Positions 7,435-56,680 of a DNA stretch of 64,000 nt are shown here, piece after piece. The translations under genes were made by a program, and so were the position numbers. The first letter of the stretch is position 1. The number at the start of each line of letters is the position of its first letter. The notes beneath the pieces are model-generated. The model ran no database searches. It saw only the letters and a list, made by a program, of their open reading frames with translations, and had not been told where the DNA came from. Source of the DNA: a phage; sequence record PZ402305.1. One strand, written 5' to 3'.

Positions 7435-7667
7435 TTGTTTTCTCCTAGATCTAAACTAATTAAGAAGTCACGAAGGATGATCATTTGTTCTGTAGACAAT
7501 GATAATACACCTTCTCCATAAATATCACCAGACCATTCAGCAGTTAGATCTAGCGTACCAGTACCAGGAAACCAATCAATAGTGATCTGATTACCATTAG
7601 AGTCAGGTAGTATTTCACTGACTAACATAACACACTCTCCTATTATTGTTCTTGATCTTACGATCAT
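7431..7667 (-). CDS. hypothetical protein (78 aa)
   Basis: Track ORF, ATGA overlap with downstream gene. Confidence 0.6.
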   Translation of the reverse strand: MIVRSRTIIGECVMLVSEILPDSNGNQITIDWFPGTGTLDLTAEWSGDIYGEGVLSLSTEQMIILRDFLISLDLGENK

Positions 7668-7744
7668 CTACCGATAAGAACAAGTACTTAAATCTCTGTT
7701 CTTCGAACATCTAACGATAGAGATTAATCTATTACATAATCTAT

Positions 7745-7801
7745 ACTCGCTATCGCTCGACCCTTCGGGGTTAGGGTAGCATATTTTTTGAAAAAAGTCA
7801 A
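7745..7801. repeat. Conserved ~55 bp intergenic element, copy A
   Basis: ACTCGCTATCGCTCG + hairpin (ACCC-TTCG-GGGT) + TTAGGGTAGCATATTTTTTGAAAAAAGTCAA; near-identical flanks recur at 42215..42271. Confidence 0.6.
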
Positions 7802-8121
7802 CACTTATTTTTGGTAAGTAGATAAATCAATTGTTCACCTGCCTCTGGTGCATATAGTGCTTTAGTATCGAAGTCAAAGAAGTGAGTGACCCCTGTTACT
7901 TTGGATGCCTGAATAGATAATCGTGCAAGCTTAAGCAGATTATCCATTTCCGCAATCTTTGCACGAAACACTGCACGTGTAGCGTCAAAAGCTGCATGTG
8001 GCATGTATTTACGATTTAGACTACTACGTTTAAATTTACGATAATCTGCAATGATCCTGTTACGTTCTTTGTTCAAGTGCTTTACCAGTGCAGTATATAC
8101 GTGTGGTTCTTTGTTAGCCAT
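7798..8121 (-). CDS. hypothetical basic protein (107 aa)
   Basis: Track ORF 7798..8154; start moved to ATG at 8121 just past upstream stop. Confidence 0.55.
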   Translation of the reverse strand: MANKEPHVYTALVKHLNKERNRIIADYRKFKRSSLNRKYMPHAAFDATRAVFRAKIAEMDNLLKLARLSIQASKVTGVTHFFDFDTKALYAPEAGEQLIYLLTKNKC

Positions 8122-8326
8122 TGTTAATCTCCTCTTCATATGTTGGTAGTGCATGGTATGCGATCACAGGTGCCAAGTCAAAATAAAAATGACCATTGAT
8201 AACAGCTATCGTGCCATTGCGTGTTTTGTTAACTTCACAGAATCCCTTCTTGCCGTTTGCCATGATTACAAGCCACTCTCCGATAGGAACATCCTCGGTA
8301 CCAGATACTTTAATCCATCCACTCAC
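8114..8326 (-). CDS. hypothetical protein (70 aa)
   Basis: Track ORF. Confidence 0.6.
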   Translation of the reverse strand: MSGWIKVSGTEDVPIGEWLVIMANGKKGFCEVNKTRNGTIAVINGHFYFDLAPVIAYHALPTYEEEINNG

Positions 8327-26794: not shown

Positions 26795-27163
26795 ATGAGC
26801 AAATCAGCAATTAAAGCACTTGAAAAAGCACAAGAAGTGATCGCAACGTCAACCACTGGCGCAAAGGTTAATCTCGTTGGTTATCTGACAGATGAAACTA
26901 TCCGTAAAAATTGGCGTAATGCTGATTTACTGGCTTGCTTATTGATTAATAGTGTCGCTAATGCTTTCCAGTGTGAAACAGCCGAGAGCCTGGAGGAAAA
27001 CTTGTTTGATAATATGGATCAAGCCATTGAAACCTATATACAATCAAACATGGATAGCTGGAACAGTAAAACATGGCCCGACAATTTACGCGATACAACT
27101 GATCAACTGATCCGCCTTGCCTTGATGGTTGAACGCGATAACGTTCACAACCGCACAAAGTAA
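26795..27163 (+). CDS. small hypothetical protein (122 aa), last gene of array
   Basis: Track ORF followed by terminator. Confidence 0.6.
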   Translation: MSKSAIKALEKAQEVIATSTTGAKVNLVGYLTDETIRKNWRNADLLACLLINSVANAFQCETAESLEENLFDNMDQAIETYIQSNMDSWNSKTWPDNLRDTTDQLIRLALMVERDNVHNRTK

Positions 27164-27171
27164 GATTATAC

Positions 27172-27200
27172 AAGGGGCGCACCAAGCGCCCTTTCTTTTT
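27172..27200 (+). terminator. Rho-independent terminator ending the small-gene array
   Basis: GGGGCGCACCAAGCGCCCTTTCTTTTTG; same hairpin as at 22086. Confidence 0.6.
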
Positions 27201-28273
27201 GCCCGAATAATGTTGATAGATTCCGCCTATGGAAAACCGACACAGAACAAAACTGAATAAATAGCGGTATCGAGCTAATCAACCATTAAACGAATAACCA
27301 TACCTCCCAGGGTAACAGGCTGTTAGAGAGCCATTTAGAGCGGTTAAAATCGATCAACAACCAACAAAAAACCATCAAAAACACCCTTTTACCTCCTTTC
27401 TAGTGCAATGATAACCATTATCATCTATCCATGTTTATCTATGCAATATAAGTGCATAACTATAATGTTGATAATAGTTCGCAACAACTAACTAACCAAC
27501 AACCTAAAACAATAAGCAAACTAATCATAATCAAAGGAATAATAGCAAGATGATTGATAACGACAAACAATCAAACCATGATGAATACTAAGCAAGATAA
27601 CGATAACACGACAAAACAACCAACTAACGAACAATAACAAACGAAACCATTAAAATAATAACTATTAGCAAAATAGTGCCTGAATGAAATCATTACAAAA
27701 CGAATCATTCACAGGATCATCATTAGCACGCTATGCCGGACACATAGCGAGCTAATAATAAGCCAACTACACCCCAACAATCATAACCATCGGTGATGGT
27801 TATTTCTTGTTACTGCGTAGCTTGCAATAATTGCAAGCGTAATACGCTTACACTTATTGCGCTGGCTTATTATTAGCATTATATGTAATTACCAAGATCA
27901 TAACATTAGCGCAATAACAATAATCATTGTGGTAATTACAAGATGAAATAATCGCTATCGCTCAAAGATCATTAGCAAGATGAATAATTGCACGTAGCAA
28001 CATGAGCGAATAGCGACAGGTTGCATAGTGTGCACATAGATGTACACGTAGTGTATAAACATACAGGAAAATAAAGGCTAATCTTTTGGGGGCGAATACT
28101 ATCGCGTAGCGATATGTTGAGCACTAAGAGAAGAGATAAACCTTAATCATGGGGGCGTAAATATCCGCAGGATTGCCAACGGCGATCCGGTAGGATGTTG
28201 AGCATCTTCTCTTAAACGTAAATAAAATCAGAAAATTCTTGATTTATTTTAGTTTTTATGTTAATAAACGTTT

Positions 28274-28301
28274 AAATAATAATCATTCTCATATGAATAA
28301 T
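28274..28301. promoter_or_regulatory. Fur-box-like palindrome 3
   Basis: AATAATAATCATTCTCATATGAATAAT shares ATAATCATTCTCAT core with 16084 site. Confidence 0.4.
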
Positions 28302-28450
28302 AGTCTGCTTGTCATGAGCGGGATCAGTTGACAATGTTCCGTCATATGATGAAGTTGCCAAACCATTGATAAATAAGTGTTTGTGTGATTTATAATCAAG
28401 TGGCCCACCTTGTCGCTATGTTGGCATGAGCCTTGCATAAGTCATTGAAT

Positions 28451-28480
28451 ACGAATGATAATTATTCTCATTCGCATGAT
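28451..28480. promoter_or_regulatory. Fur-box-like palindrome 4
   Basis: ACGAATGATAATTATTCTCATTCGCATGAT, near-perfect inverted repeat. Confidence 0.4.
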
Positions 28481-28813
28481 ATTTGAGAATTGTCGCTGCG
28501 TGGACCTGACGGCCCGAAAATTCGCGTTAAGCACTTCTTACGTATGCGCCATGATTTTTGCCATATGATATTGATTCTATTAGATATTCTTGCCATGATT
28601 GCCATGAAACAGGGTGTCCCGAAATAATCTCTCCCCGTAGATATTTTGGGTTACTTTTTATACAAGAGTGGGGTGTCAAAAATAATCGGTATATATGGGA
28701 TAATTGATAGGAATCCCCTATGATAATTCGATTGTAATTCCCTGAGATTGATCGTATGATGTTGGTGATTGATGATTGCCATGAAAGATGGCTAACAATG
28801 AGAGGAGATTATC

Positions 28814-38405: not shown

Positions 38406-38431
38406 AATACAGCAATGGTTTAGGAGTGGTT

Positions 38432-39103
38432 ATGAAAAAGTTTGTTGTTTACAGTCGTCTTTCTAAACAGAAAAAAGGTGAGGCACAATATGGTATGGAG
38501 AGCCAAGAGAATGATATCCGTTACTTCTTAGACTCTGTGCCTGATGCGGAAGTTATTGGTCAATTTTCTGAATACTATTCGGGTAAGGGCGATTGGAAGC
38601 AACGTAAGGAACTGGTTAAAGCGGTTGAAATGTGTAAAGCTACCGGAGCAACTTTATTGGTAGCTAAAGTTGACCGCTTGGGTCGTAATAACGCCTCCGT
38701 AGCAACTCTTCTAGAAATGATTGATGTTAAGATAGCCATCATGCCAGACGCAGATAAAATGGTTATACAGCTTCTGTCTGTTCTGGCTGAACAAGAAGTT
38801 AGAGGTATTGCTGATCGTATTAAAAAGGGTCTTGCTGTAGCAAAAAGCAAAGGTGTTTTATTAGGCAGTGCCAATCCTAAAACTGCCGCTGCACGTAGAA
38901 AAGGAAAAATGGAATACAACTCTGTTAAAGCAGACGCTTTTGCAGAGACATTCCGTGAACGCTTGGAGATCCTTAGAGATTTAAATACACCTTACAAAAC
39001 TATTGCTGAAAAATTCAATAGTAAGAAAATAGCAACAGCACGTGGTGGTAAATGGGATGCTAAAACTGTTTCTCGTTTGTGTGCCAGACTGAACATTAAA
39101 TAG
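38432..39103 (+). CDS. Serine recombinase (resolvase/invertase family)
   Basis: VYSRLSK, TLLVAKVDRLGRNNASVATLLEMI, LLSVLAEQEVRGIADRIKKGLAVAKSKG align with Hin/Gin catalytic domain; C-terminal GGKWDAKTVSRL; start ATG after AGGAG. Confidence 0.75.
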   Translation: MKKFVVYSRLSKQKKGEAQYGMESQENDIRYFLDSVPDAEVIGQFSEYYSGKGDWKQRKELVKAVEMCKATGATLLVAKVDRLGRNNASVATLLEMIDVKIAIMPDADKMVIQLLSVLAEQEVRGIADRIKKGLAVAKSKGVLLGSANPKTAAARRKGKMEYNSVKADAFAETFRERLEILRDLNTPYKTIAEKFNSKKIATARGGKWDAKTVSRLCARLNIK

Positions 39104-41489: not shown

Positions 41490-41909
41490 ATGTTAGGTAA
41501 GATCAAAGCTTTTTTCAAACGTATTGTTGAAGGAAGTCCAACAGAAGGTGCATTAGGAAGATCTCTAACAGGAGAACCACTTGCCATAATTTCTATCAGT
41601 CGGCATGGGGGATATTCCATTCGACAAACACCTTTAGGTATAAAAGGTAGTATGCTTTCTTGGACAATATCTCAAGTTGGTGATAACAGACTTGCAGCTA
41701 TAGCATTGCTTCGTGGGGAGTATGACTATTGTTTATCAGCATCTTGTAAAAAGCACCTTATAGAGCACATTAAAGACAGAGTAGAAAGAGAAGGCGGATA
41801 CTTTTTCGAAACTAAGAGAAACGAACAAGGAACTCTTGACTTCACTAAGGTTTACTGGGACAATCATACTCGTCAAACTGTTGAACAACTTCTGGAGGAA
41901 AGATGTTAA
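41490..41909 (+). CDS. hypothetical protein (139 aa)
   Basis: Track ORF. Confidence 0.6.
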   Translation: MLGKIKAFFKRIVEGSPTEGALGRSLTGEPLAIISISRHGGYSIRQTPLGIKGSMLSWTISQVGDNRLAAIALLRGEYDYCLSASCKKHLIEHIKDRVEREGGYFFETKRNEQGTLDFTKVYWDNHTRQTVEQLLEERC

Positions 41910-42112
41910 AAGCTTTTGCTGTATACTCTACTGTAGGATTCTTTTATTGGATTATAGTTGTTGTTGGATGTTGGTTGGGTTCTTCTGTTGTGATGGGAGA
42001 ATGGTTAACATACAATGTATTTGAATGGGATGTAGTTTGTAGATCATTACTTGTTATATGGACTGCTATTGTTTGTTGGATAACTGTTAGTCTAACATTA
42101 GATCTATATTGA
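41903..42112 (+). CDS. small membrane protein (69 aa)
   Basis: Two hydrophobic helices. Confidence 0.6.
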   Translation: MLKAFAVYSTVGFFYWIIVVVGCWLGSSVVMGEWLTYNVFEWDVVCRSLLVIWTAIVCWITVSLTLDLY

Positions 42113-42214
42113 TTAATAGATGGTAGATAGATGATCATAGTTTATCTACCTTCACTTACGTTTCATACCTCACTATCGTGAGTAACATGAAACATTATTA
42201 TATAGAAATCTACT

Positions 42215-42271
42215 ACTCGCTATCGCTCGTAAACATATGTTTAGGGTACCATATTTTTTTGAAAAAGTCAA
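42215..42271. repeat. Conserved ~55 bp intergenic element, copy B
   Basis: ACTCGCTATCGCTCG + hairpin (TAAACA-TA-TGTTTA) + TAGGGTACCATATTTTTTTGAAAAAGTCAA; same orientation as copy A. Confidence 0.6.
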
Positions 42272-42404
42272 TGCTGACTCACCTATCAATTATCTGTTTA
42301 AGATAAGTCTTACCTATCAATCTAACTCTTAACTAGTATTGTACCTATAGTAAGACTATTCCTATAGTTATTAACCATCTTCTTCTGTAGAATGTAATTA
42401 GATC

Positions 42405-42435
42405 CTTGACAAACTCACAAAGCTTGTGTTACATT
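42405..42435 (+). promoter_or_regulatory. sigma70-like promoter
   Basis: TTGACA-N17-TTACAT upstream of AGGAGG and ATG at 42473. Confidence 0.45.
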
Positions 42436-43985: not shown

Positions 43986-44594
43986 ATGGAAGAGAAGATT
44001 TGGGATGGTAAAGATCCTTTAGAAGTTGGACACGTAGCGCGTGTCAAAAAATCTACTACAGGTCCTGGTTTTTCTGGTTTGTATCATATACCAGAAGAAG
44101 GTCAGCACGTTACAATTTTGGCTCGTGACAAACAAAACGGAGCAACGCCTGTGTGGATTGTTCGTTGGTATGACAAAGATCTTAACATTTGCTTGTCACC
44201 TATTATGGCTCATTTGCTGGAAGCCCCTTGCTCTGAAGAAGCTCTAATTTTTGTTTCGGCTTTTCAGAAAGCCACAGGTTTAACATTAGATGCAAAAGAT
44301 GTGCAAAAAGCATTTGACATTATTCAGGAAGACAACGATACTACATCTAACGACGAACTGGTTGAAGTTACAATCTTATCTTCAGCAGATATCCGAGAGA
44401 TTGATAATTGTGATTTTCCAATCACATTTAAAATGTCGCAGAAAGACATGCAGTCATCTGGAAGTTGTTTTGGTATACCTCGTTGGTTTTTTGATTCTAT
44501 CGAAAATTCTACTACAGAGGGATCAGACTATGATCAAGATGACATGCTTTGGTTCTTAAAAAACCGAGAGATTGTTCTCTCACCACTTAAATAA
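43986..44594 (+). CDS. hypothetical protein (202 aa)
   Basis: Track ORF. Confidence 0.6.
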   Translation: MEEKIWDGKDPLEVGHVARVKKSTTGPGFSGLYHIPEEGQHVTILARDKQNGATPVWIVRWYDKDLNICLSPIMAHLLEAPCSEEALIFVSAFQKATGLTLDAKDVQKAFDIIQEDNDTTSNDELVEVTILSSADIREIDNCDFPITFKMSQKDMQSSGSCFGIPRWFFDSIENSTTEGSDYDQDDMLWFLKNREIVLSPLK

Positions 44595-44603
44595 GGAGAA
44601 ATA

Positions 44604-44705
44604 ATGGTTTCATTTATCGTAGGTGTAGTTGTAGGCTATCTTATTAACAAATATCAAGACGTTATCACGGCAAAAGTAAAAGACATTTTAGACTCATCTA
44701 AATAA
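44604..44705 (+). CDS. small membrane peptide (33 aa)
   Basis: Not in track; AAGGAGAAATA upstream; followed by hairpin. Confidence 0.4.
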   Translation: MVSFIVGVVVGYLINKYQDVITAKVKDILDSSK

Positions 44706-55987: not shown

Positions 55988-56680
55988 TTAAATAGCGGTT
56001 CCTTCGAAATCCGCCACATTTACGAGATTAATATTTTCAGATTTAGAAGTCAAGTTGTTTTCTGCAACAGATTTTTCTTCAGTATCCGCCTCGTTACCTG
56101 CCACGTTACGAGGTTCTTCTTCACCGTAGGGATTACCGAATTTCAAAAGATTGATCAATTCTTCTTTGGAGAAGTTTTCTAAATCATCGTCTGTTAATTC
56201 AATAATCTCGTCTTGTTCTTCAATAAATGTTTCACCACCAGAAAAAGCATCTCGCTTTTTAGCTACTTCCATAGCCTGTTCTGGTGTTGCCCCTGCATCA
56301 AGAGCAGCTAAAGCAAAGTCTGACCCACTCCCTACTGCATAATATTCTTCATCAATCGGATATGCACGTGTTGGGTTGTTACCCTCGTGCAGGAAAATAC
56401 GTCCGTCTGGATGAACAACAAGTGCAATAAACTCTTCATCTTCTTTGTCTGGATCAGAGTGAATCATCAAACCAGGGACAGCATCACGTGCTGCTTCGCA
56501 CTGTAGATTTTGTTCAAACCATTGAAAGAAAGAAAGCACGGAGGTCAGACGACCAGCACCACCTACAAGGTAATCTCCAATTTTTCGGACCTTTTTGAAA
56601 TTAATAGAATCTACACGTCCACCAAAAGTTACCTTACCGTCACTCAAAATCTTATTTTTGGTTGCAATAATTGTCGTCAC
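55988..56680 (-). CDS. HslV-like Ntn-hydrolase peptidase with acidic C-terminal extension
   Basis: N-terminal MTTIIATK (Thr nucleophile at +2 as in HslV MTTIVSV), GGR, YAVGSGSDFALAA (HslV GSGG box). Confidence 0.7.
   Translation of the reverse strand: MTTIIATKNKILSDGKVTFGGRVDSINFKKVRKIGDYLVGGAGRLTSVLSFFQWFEQNLQCEAARDAVPGLMIHSDPDKEDEEFIALVVHPDGRIFLHEGNNPTRAYPIDEEYYAVGSGSDFALAALDAGATPEQAMEVAKKRDAFSGGETFIEEQDEIIELTDDDLENFSKEELINLLKFGNPYGEEEPRNVAGNEADTEEKSVAENNLTSKSENINLVNVADFEGTAI

Follow-up and report, generated by a model that had tools for sequence, protein, structure and literature searches.

Here, we present an analysis of a repeated element in a 64,000-nucleotide (nt) stretch of phage DNA (record PZ402305.1; the whole of this stretch is referred to as the window), of which one copy (copy A) is located at 7745..7801 and a second (copy B) at 42215..42271. 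Based on sequence comparison, we conclude that the element is probably a phage-specific cassette, present three times per genome, in which a sigma-70-type extended -10 promoter is followed close to the transcription start by an invariant hairpin (referred to as the box) that serves as a cis signal. The promoter identity is well supported by the anatomy of the element and its comparison between relatives, and the cassette appears strongly conserved in, and specific to, the subfamily Stephanstirmvirinae. A first-pass annotation of this DNA had listed a phage-specific promoter among several candidate roles; anatomy and comparison favour this role, on the strand opposite to the one that was read at that time.

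When two 2-kb segments around copies A and B were matched to database records, ~100 Escherichia phages of the genus Phapecoctavirus matched both segments at 98-99.5% identity. Judged from these matches, the window derives from a Phapecoctavirus, i.e., a phAPEC8-like E. coli myovirus of the subfamily Stephanstirmvirinae with genomes of ~150 kb. The two copies have the same orientation and the positions reported in the first-pass annotation, and their sequences were re-read. ACTCGCTATCGCTCG is present as an exact match at 7745-7759 and 42215-42229 (with up to three mismatches, there are three matches in the window compared to 0.46 expected), and the right-hand 30-mer TAGGGTA(G/C)CATATTTTTT(G/T)(A/G)AAAAAGTCAA is present at 7772-7801 and 42242-42271, with 27 of the 30 bases identical and 0.2 matches to the pattern expected by chance. 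Between these two halves, the copies carry hairpins of different sequence, as had been described, i.e., the palindrome ACCCTTCGGGGT in copy A and TAAACATATGTTTA in copy B.

To describe the family, we used an alignment (A2) of 17 distinct members from at least six lineages and a covariance model (R1) built from it. R1 identifies exactly two copies in the window, with scores of 72.7 bits for copy A (7739-7805, minus strand) and 72.8 bits for copy B (42209-42275, minus strand); the next best match in the window has a score of 14.7 bits and, on direct reading, neither a -10 element nor a box. In the complete genomes of ESCO13 (Phapecoctavirus) and alia (Justusliebigvirus), R1 identifies exactly three copies each, and the pattern TACCCTA followed by 12-16 nt and CGAGCG-N(1-2)-AGCGAG likewise has exactly three sites in each of these genomes. 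In ESCO13, alia, and the window, scores range from 59 to 76 bits for the true copies and do not exceed 15.6 bits elsewhere. Thus, the copy number of two given in the first-pass annotation is correct for the window and not for the genome: the whole genomes of relatives have three copies, and the third (class C; 56253-56308 on the plus strand in ESCO13) is located ~40 kb past the right end of copy B and, hence, outside the window. In BLAST searches with the 76-nt element, two places were found per Phapecoctavirus record and three per Justusliebigvirus record because the spacer of the third Phapecoctavirus copy is too diverged to be detected. Two other sites in the window were rejected as family members: in a 15-mer match at 27950 (8.2 bits), the box part alone matches and is strain specific, and the sequence of a candidate fourth copy at 44579-44661 has no -10 element and no box. 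The element had no match in 5,426 E. coli genomes, and a host origin was therefore rejected. Rfam had no family for the window or the element at gathering and permissive thresholds, no tRNA or tmRNA genes were found within the window, and no description of the element was found in the literature, which was searched also by sequence string.

On the minus strand, both copies follow the same plan, in which a -35 hexamer TTGACT, a 17-nt spacer, an extended -10 element of the form TGn-TACCCT-A, a 13-nt variable segment, and the 14-nt box succeed each other. Copy A reads TTGACT-TTTTTCAAAAAATATGC-TACCCT-A-ACCCCGAAGGGT-CGAGCGATAGCGAG and copy B reads TTGACT-TTTTCAAAAAAATATGG-TACCCT-A-AACATATGTTTA-CGAGCGATAGCGAG; the TTTTTTGAAAAAAGTCAA recorded in the first-pass annotation corresponds to the -35 box and the spacer, while its TAGGGTA is the complement of the -10 element. 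With expected start sites placed 7-8 nt past the -10 element, the copy A cassette (class A; 7746..7801, minus strand), which consists of the putative promoter and the initially transcribed hairpin box, is aimed at the leftward genes from 7631. Its -35 hexamer (7796..7801) shares bases with the TGA stop codon at 7798-7800, with which the upstream gene (7798..8154) ends, and is separated by 17 nt from the extended -10 element at 7773..7781 (TG at 7780-7781, C, and TACCCT at 7773-7778). An inverted repeat, ACCC-CGAA-GGGT (7760..7771), straddles the expected start at G7766 or A7765 and is followed by the box CGAGC-GATA-GCGAG (7746..7759), a mini-hairpin that combines two G-C pairs with tandem G.A/A.G mismatches and a C-G closing pair. 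The copy B cassette (class B; 42216..42271, minus strand) points leftward and opposes the 3' end of 41903..42112, a plus-strand gene. By sequence reading, its -35 hexamer is at 42266..42271, and a 17-nt spacer separates this hexamer from the extended -10 element at 42243..42251 (TG at 42250-42251, G, and TACCCT at 42243-42248). The AT-rich palindrome TAAACAT/ATGTTTA (42230..42243) overlaps the last base of the -10 element and the expected start at A42236, and the stem of the box CGAGC-GATA-GCGAG (42216..42229) is lengthened by flanking TA/TA.

Comparison of the 17 members in A2 supports this anatomy. The -35 hexamer is TTGACx in 14 (TTGACT in 13), TTTACT in two, and TTGATT in one, and the TTGACT in the window agrees with the consensus TTGACA at five of the six positions. 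The spacer is 17-18 nt throughout and its sequence differs between classes, while the TG at -15/-14 and the TACCCTA are unchanged in all 17. Altogether, the invariant positions are the TT and A of the -35 hexamer, the TG, the TACCCTA, and both arms of the box; the spacer sequence, the 12-16 nt from the -10 element to the box, and the loop of the box vary. The -10 hexamer has the form TAnnnT, in which A-11 and T-7 are present and conserved. Among viral sequences in IMG/VR, TTGACTTT-N12-TGCTACCCTA is present without the box in ~11 unrelated phage lineages and, in one of these (L278), immediately precedes a ribosome-binding site and an ATG, supporting that TGnTACCCT functions as a -10 element. 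As a control, a wrongly spaced promoter pattern gave 100 chance matches, none of which has a box (0/100). An alternative -10 element, TATGCT, which would place the first hairpin at the 5' end of the RNA, was rejected based on its 12-nt spacer and the lack of conservation of the hexamer (CATGCT, TGTGCT, and TGTGAT). Finally, the core of the cassette is unchanged in a contig (L090) whose proteins share only 27-37% identity with those of alia, indicating that the cassette is under strong purifying selection.

The box is the second invariant part of the cassette. Its arms, CGAGC and GCGAG, pair as C-G, G.A, A.G, G-C, and C-G around the loop and never vary, while the loops observed are GATA, GCA, GAA, GGGA, GAAA, GAAT, and GGA. 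In several members, the flanks extend the stem (TTAA/TTAA in class C, TAC/GTA in a second alia copy, alia-2, and in L022, and TA/TA in copy B). In an alignment of 22 sequences, the first extension pair forms in 19 (AU in nine, CG in nine, and UA in one) and the third in all 22 (CG in eight, UA in eight, UG in five, and GU in one). Overall, 85.7% of the flank cells are paired compared to 30-45% when the partner columns were slid, and the co-variation score was reached by none of 500 shuffles; while the relatedness of the sequences overstates their independence, the slide control is still clear. On the other strand, the G.U pairs would turn into A.C mismatches, and the structure is therefore assigned to the sense strand, i.e., to RNA or to non-template DNA. 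Moreover, the loop length that varies by one base and the mirror-repeat arrangement of the arms argue against recognition as duplex DNA. Using RNAfold, the box hairpin with its 2x2 internal loop was predicted in the putative copy B transcript, with a fold z of -3.3 relative to shuffles. The core of the box also fits the GCG-N(N)-AGC rule in 16 of the 17 members, the exception being the class A copy of Citrobacter phage Tr1 (Tr1-A; GCGAATGC), and both copies in the window have the core GCGATAGC, which fits the rule for DNA mini-hairpins (two G-C pairs and a G..A loop of 3-4 nt). Based on these comparisons, the box appears to act as a sense-strand hairpin, either in the nascent RNA or in the displaced non-template DNA strand; co-variation shows the pairing on the sense strand and does not separate these two forms.

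The three classes occupy fixed places. The ESCO13 genome comprises four strand blocks, and the three classes in alia hold the same places relative to the four blocks. Class A is directed leftward and is located 1.7 kb inside the block with the genes for helicase, ribonucleotide reductase, primase-helicase, and DNA polymerase; it is co-directional with the flanking genes by annotation in four lineages (here, Klebsiella phi1_175008, phiWec186, and Citrobacter Tr1) and, judged by its place within the strand blocks, also in alia. The gene downstream of copy A is on the same strand, and its start at 7631 is backed by a full-length PHROG match. Class B is located in the rightward early block, ~3.3 kb before the end of this block, and is antisense to its flanking genes, an orientation that is kept in the phiWec186-like L158, Tr1, alia, and L022. 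Copy B and a good rightward promoter (42406-42435) are arranged back to back. The earlier statement that both copies are intergenic at operon boundaries applies to copy B; copy A is not at such a boundary in the usual sense, as the genes on either side of it share one strand and the stop codon of the upstream gene is inside the -35 hexamer. In ESCO13, class C is located between divergent genes, in the intergenic region that precedes gp130, the tRNA cluster, and the late genes.

Parts of the cassette may occur more widely. A search of IMG/VR for TACCCTA-N(8-17)-CGAGCG-N(1-2)-AGCGAG gave 47 matches, of which 17 are from this phage group, 26 from a single group of soil phages, and one from a contig (L116) in which the match is in non-coding DNA upstream of a tRNA cluster. 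The soil phages (L136, 9940-10100; L129, 2132-2161; and ~25 related IMG/VR contigs) have a large terminase, an SU10-type portal, and a G+C content of 43%. Their module, TACCCTA-TCCCCCCC(A/T)A-CGAGCG(A/C/G)AGCGAG-TGGG, occurs as two divergent, inverted copies 137 nt upstream of the gene for the large terminase and has a stem extension of its own (CCCA/TGGG) and GAA, GCA, and GGA loops. No shared proteins were detectable between the soil phages or L116 and this phage group in the segments compared. A control pattern of the same composition (ATCCCAT...) gave four matches, all inside long open reading frames (ORFs), and the number of independent lineages was not above chance. The module in the soil phages is either that of the cassette or a striking coincidence. 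For the soil phages and L116, the non-coding location and the stem extensions are suggestive, and we regard a relationship to the cassette as a lead.

Altogether, we suggest the following model. Host RNA polymerase would start at each of the minus-strand promoters at or near the expected start sites, and the box would be within the first 20-25 transcribed nt. Transcripts from copy A would enter the leftward set of early and replication genes, with the gene from 7631 as the first, while copy B would transcribe leftward against the end of the rightward early operon and would probably give rise to a short or antisense RNA; the class C cassette would head the block of tRNA and late genes. The hairpin would be a cis signal that labels the three units of transcription for a factor active immediately after initiation, with a putative effect on transcript stability, on elongation or antitermination, or on priming. 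By analogy with known systems, we also entertain, as a tentative possibility well short of an even chance, the more specific idea that the box, rather than stabilizing RNA, is a mini-hairpin of the non-template DNA strand that becomes exposed as the polymerase leaves the promoters, or in an R-loop behind the polymerase, and from which a phage factor would make the polymerase processive and resistant to terminators (as RfaH does at ops) or would prime replication (as at G4, ssiA, and N4).

Several observations weigh against the model of a promoter with a hairpin signal in its transcript. TACCCT agrees with TATAAT at only three of six positions, and a promoter scan lists neither copy; moreover, the invariance of TACCCTA appears to go beyond what a -10 element needs. 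Copy B faces the 3' end of 41903..42112 and has no downstream gene on the same strand in every lineage checked, and predicted folds of five lineages share nothing except for the box hairpin; a small RNA from copy B is thus a possibility that we do not claim. The RNA-level reading of the box is insecure, its core obeying the rule for DNA mini-hairpins, and the possibly related module in the soil phages has neither a -35 box nor a TG motif. In the literature, transcriptome or promoter data for the phAPEC8-like group were not found; the rV5 paper contains only generic sigma-70 predictions. A further difficulty is the inverted repeat of variable sequence between the -10 element and the box. It is present in 12 of 14 lineage-distinct members. 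The mean best stem is 3.64 bp, whereas that of shuffles is 2.55 bp, and the observed mean was not reached in any of 2000 shuffles. The copy B palindrome is identical in L158, and other AT-rich palindromes are present in the class B copy of Tr1 (Tr1-B) and in L022. Because the repeat straddles the expected start site, it cannot lie wholly in the RNA from this promoter. By these comparisons, we consider the inverted repeat real, puzzling, and without a good explanation.

Among the alternatives, we keep a role in replication as the main rival, although we regard it as unlikely. It accepts the promoter and differs only in the purpose of the cassette: transcription from the promoter would open the DNA or form an R-loop, and the mini-hairpin in the displaced strand would be a single-strand initiation signal for the phage primase-helicase, resulting in a promoter-coupled origin or priming site, by analogy with oriF/oriG of T4, the T7 origin, and the mini-hairpins of G4, RSF1010 ssiA, and N4. 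The fit of the core to GCG-N(N)-AGC, which is the consensus of stable DNA mini-hairpins (PMC13037366), speaks for this idea, as do the GNA triloops, which are more typical of DNA than of RNA hairpins, and the purine-rich sense strand past the start (68% in copy A). The stem extensions in L116, of up to 6 bp, are also too long for a normal transcription bubble (bubble size from PMC5995543), and class C is followed by the most (alia) or second most (ESCO13) AT-rich stretch of the genome. However, no exceptional AT-rich stretch is located near copies A and B, the GC skew only mirrors gene orientation and is hence uninformative, an ORF-free region of 1.6 kb at 27160-28800 is another candidate for an origin, and the analogy itself is built on a short sequence rule. 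We consider it improbable that the box is instead a double-stranded operator, at which a phage regulator would bind the duplex at approximately +8 to +21 and block or tune the three promoters. The invariance of CGAGC and GCGAG is what sequence-specific recognition would predict, a location just past the start would suit a roadblock repressor, and two box-like strings are present in the ORF-free region (27950-27964 and 28004-28016); these strings are absent from ESCO13, though. The arms form a mirror repeat, which is neither inverted nor direct, and the distance between them varies by one base (loops of 3 and 4 nt), which duplex-binding dimers rarely tolerate. Recognition as duplex also does not predict that the flanks co-vary to lengthen the stem.

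The leading idea in the first-pass annotation was that the copies are recombination or resolution sites. In this scenario, the serine recombinase encoded at 38426-39103 (plus strand) would excise or invert the 34-kb segment between them. The gene is indeed located between the copies, and matches to Pfam Resolvase (E = 5e-18) and PHROG DNA invertase (E = 1e-32) identify its product as a genuine small serine recombinase. The two copies in the window have the same orientation, and the spacer TTTTTTGAAAAAA is a near-dyad. Despite this, we find the idea highly improbable. There are three copies per genome, one of which is in the opposite orientation; the central dyads, ACCCTTCGGGGT and TAAACATATGTTTA, are wholly different and leave no shared crossover core; the A/T tract of the spacer lacks conservation in class C and in other lineages; and in alia the homologue of the recombinase (57% identity) is at 112.2-112.8 kb, on the other strand and between classes B and C. 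In addition, the A-B spacing of ~35 kb and the orientation are constant, with no inversion or deletion among the top-ranked relatives listed, and the positions that are conserved match those of a promoter exactly. Independently of the cassette, we note that this gene for a small serine recombinase/invertase occurs in a strictly lytic phage group. We attach equally little weight to the suggestion that the element is an intrinsic terminator on the plus strand, in which the hairpin and a T-run would end rightward transcripts. A scan of the plus strand gave a weak candidate at 7760-7777 (five pairs and an 8-nt loop, followed by AGCATATTTT), and copy B is located just past a plus-strand operon. However, the T-run begins 12 nt after the tight hairpin and is the spacer of the promoter, which is replaced by other sequence in class C and in other lineages; the scan finds nothing at copy B; the plus strand of copy A is antisense to all neighbouring genes; and the third copy is opposite in genome orientation while having the same orientation relative to its downstream genes. 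Thus, we favour the promoter and start-proximal hairpin over these alternatives.

The predicted 5' leader from copy A (7632..7745, minus strand) runs to the ATG at 7629-7631 and, despite a different first gene, is also conserved in the phiWec186-like lineage (L023); its fold is only weakly better than that of shuffles (z = -1.6). Direct repeats (TATCGTTAGATG and TATCGGTAGATG) and nested inverted repeats (GTTCGAAGAAC and TTGTTCTT...AAGAACAA) are present in this leader. A terminator annotated in this leader in ASO2A, at the second hairpin, was rejected based on the lack of a U-run. Two AT-rich hairpins (42122..42193, strand not assigned), located in the gap that separates the end of the upstream plus-strand operon from copy B, are possible terminators, and in ASO2A a plus-strand terminator is annotated at their place. 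Both hairpins are kept in L158, with base changes at the foot of the stem. As candidate terminators, they could limit the copy B transcript to ~45-115 nt. An ORF of 39 codons at 42187-42306 (plus strand) extends across copy B and is annotated in ASO2A (ASO2A_058) and phAPEC8 (phAPEC8_0059); this ORF is probably spurious because the same DNA recurs at two other sites that are non-coding, and a coding sequence of 32 codons over class A in Klebsiella phi1_175008 is probably spurious as well. Class C is followed by a non-coding leader of 250-280 nt (ESCO13, 56249-56560, corresponding to L004, 6249-6560; alia, L008, 40220-40500), which contains clustered GATC and AGATCT sites and a second, promoter-like TTGACT site. 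The most AT-rich 60-nt stretch of the alia genome (95% AT) is located 100-200 nt past class C, and the counterpart in ESCO13 is the second most AT-rich 60 nt of that genome, with GATC sites clustering there. By sequence, the class C leader looks like a DNA unwinding element.

Several other features of the window are described here for completeness. In the ORF-free region of 1.6 kb at 27160-28800, a palindromic 18-mer, AATGATAAyyATTmTCAT, which we take to resemble the E. coli Fur box, is present four times or more (27407, 27654, 28275, and 28454), along with several inverted repeats and, at 28223, the 60 nt with the highest AT content in the window. The GenBank records of many relatives start near this region, and it may be an origin, packaging, or regulatory region. 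The box-like strings in this region, TGAGCGATAGCGATT (27950-27964, minus strand) and GAGCGAATAGCGA (28004-28016, plus strand), face each other; they are strain specific, as judged from their absence from ESCO13, and their meaning is doubtful. Perfect hairpins resembling bidirectional terminators are present at 45590-45613 (AAAGGCACCC...GGGTGCCTTT), where gene blocks converge, and at 269-289 (AAAGGCGC...GCGCCTTT), at the end of a leftward run of genes.

Phages of the Stephanstirmvirinae, including the phAPEC8-like phages, are widely isolated for therapy, while the control of their transcription is unstudied. A specific regulatory step is marked by a class of three putative promoters, with an invariant -10 element and an invariant hairpin close to the start, that has been kept unchanged while the proteins diverged to ~30% identity. 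Should the hairpin act in the form of single-stranded DNA, the cassette would add a phage example to the few signals that are read from the non-template strand; should class C be an origin, the place at which replication initiates in this group would be located; and if the modules in the soil phages and L116 are counterparts, a promoter-coupled single-strand signal would be widespread and so far undescribed. For annotation, the small ORFs called across the element, e.g., the one at 42187-42306, are better regarded as probably spurious.

The cassette shares features with several known systems, and these likenesses suggest how the box might work without establishing membership in any of the families. 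With the sigma-70 extended -10 promoters of E. coli (TGnTATAAT), it shares the TTGACT, the spacer of 17-18 nt, the TG at -15/-14, A-11, and T-7; in contrast to these promoters, it has an invariant TACCCT-A and an invariant hairpin close to the start, and one of the three copies is directed against its neighbours. The likeness to nut (boxA and boxB) of lambda and put of HK022, which are promoter-proximal RNA signals for antitermination, lies in a small hairpin just past the promoters of long phage transcription units. However, the box hairpin has tandem G.A pairs and a loop of 3-4 nt, no match to CGCTCTTTA with up to two mismatches, as a boxA (CGCUCUUUA-like), was found in the 340 nt downstream of either promoter, and no N-, Q-, or Nun-like gene was identified. 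In oriF and oriG of T4 and in the primary origin of T7, a promoter is combined with a downstream unwinding element. Class C resembles these origins in that a very AT-rich stretch follows the promoter, and there are several sites per genome, while copies A and B differ from them in having no such stretch.

At the level of the hairpin itself, the closest likenesses are to signals in single-stranded DNA. The DNA mini-hairpins GCGNAGC and GCGNNAGC are extraordinarily stable and are present at the G4 origin, near ssiA of RSF1010, and in the N4 early promoters (PMC13037366). As described, the box core obeys the same rule in nearly all members and is located in the region of the transcription start; however, the box follows a conventional double-stranded promoter of the host type, it has additional tandem G.A pairs and a closing C-G pair, and an N4-type virion RNA polymerase was not found in the ESCO13 annotation. 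The ops element of RfaH (GGCGGTAGnnTG) forms a hairpin on non-template DNA in the leaders of long operons (PMC5995543). Box and ops are both leader elements with a GC-G..A-GC core (GCGGTAGC in ops and GCGATAGC in the box), and by eye the box in the window matches nine of 12 ops positions. Nonetheless, the box was rejected as an ops site: AGCGATAGCGAG in the box has an A at position 5, and the G5A mutation in ops abolishes the recruitment of RfaH (PMC5995543); it has AG at positions 11-12 and, thus, not the pause-inducing T11-G12; its loop varies freely; and its stem with the extensions is longer than the transcription bubble of 10-11 nt permits.

As a cassette, the element is most readily compared with the promoter-early stem-loop (PeSL) cassettes of T4-type phages, which are present in many copies per genome, mark the boundaries of indels and gene swaps in hyperplastic regions, and combine a stem-loop terminator with a strong early promoter similar to those of sigma-70 (PMC2839356, PMC4122927). 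In both cases, short repeated cassettes of a promoter and a stem-loop are intergenic in large lytic myoviruses, and the genes that follow class A differ between lineages. The cassette described here differs from PeSLs in that it is present in exactly three copies at fixed positions and in that its hairpin is located downstream of the promoter and has no U-tail; shuffling between copies is not in evidence in the family. A separate set of repeats in the window is also relevant to this comparison. Between 17019 and 26434 (plus strand), ~17 cassettes, one before each small early gene, consist of TTGACA, 16-17 nt, TAnnnT, and then GTATCACRTAGGGCGG...CCGCYC, with a G+C-rich hairpin that begins a few bases past the expected start. 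By analogy, these cassettes, rather than the element with the box, appear to be the closest counterpart of PeSLs in this genome.

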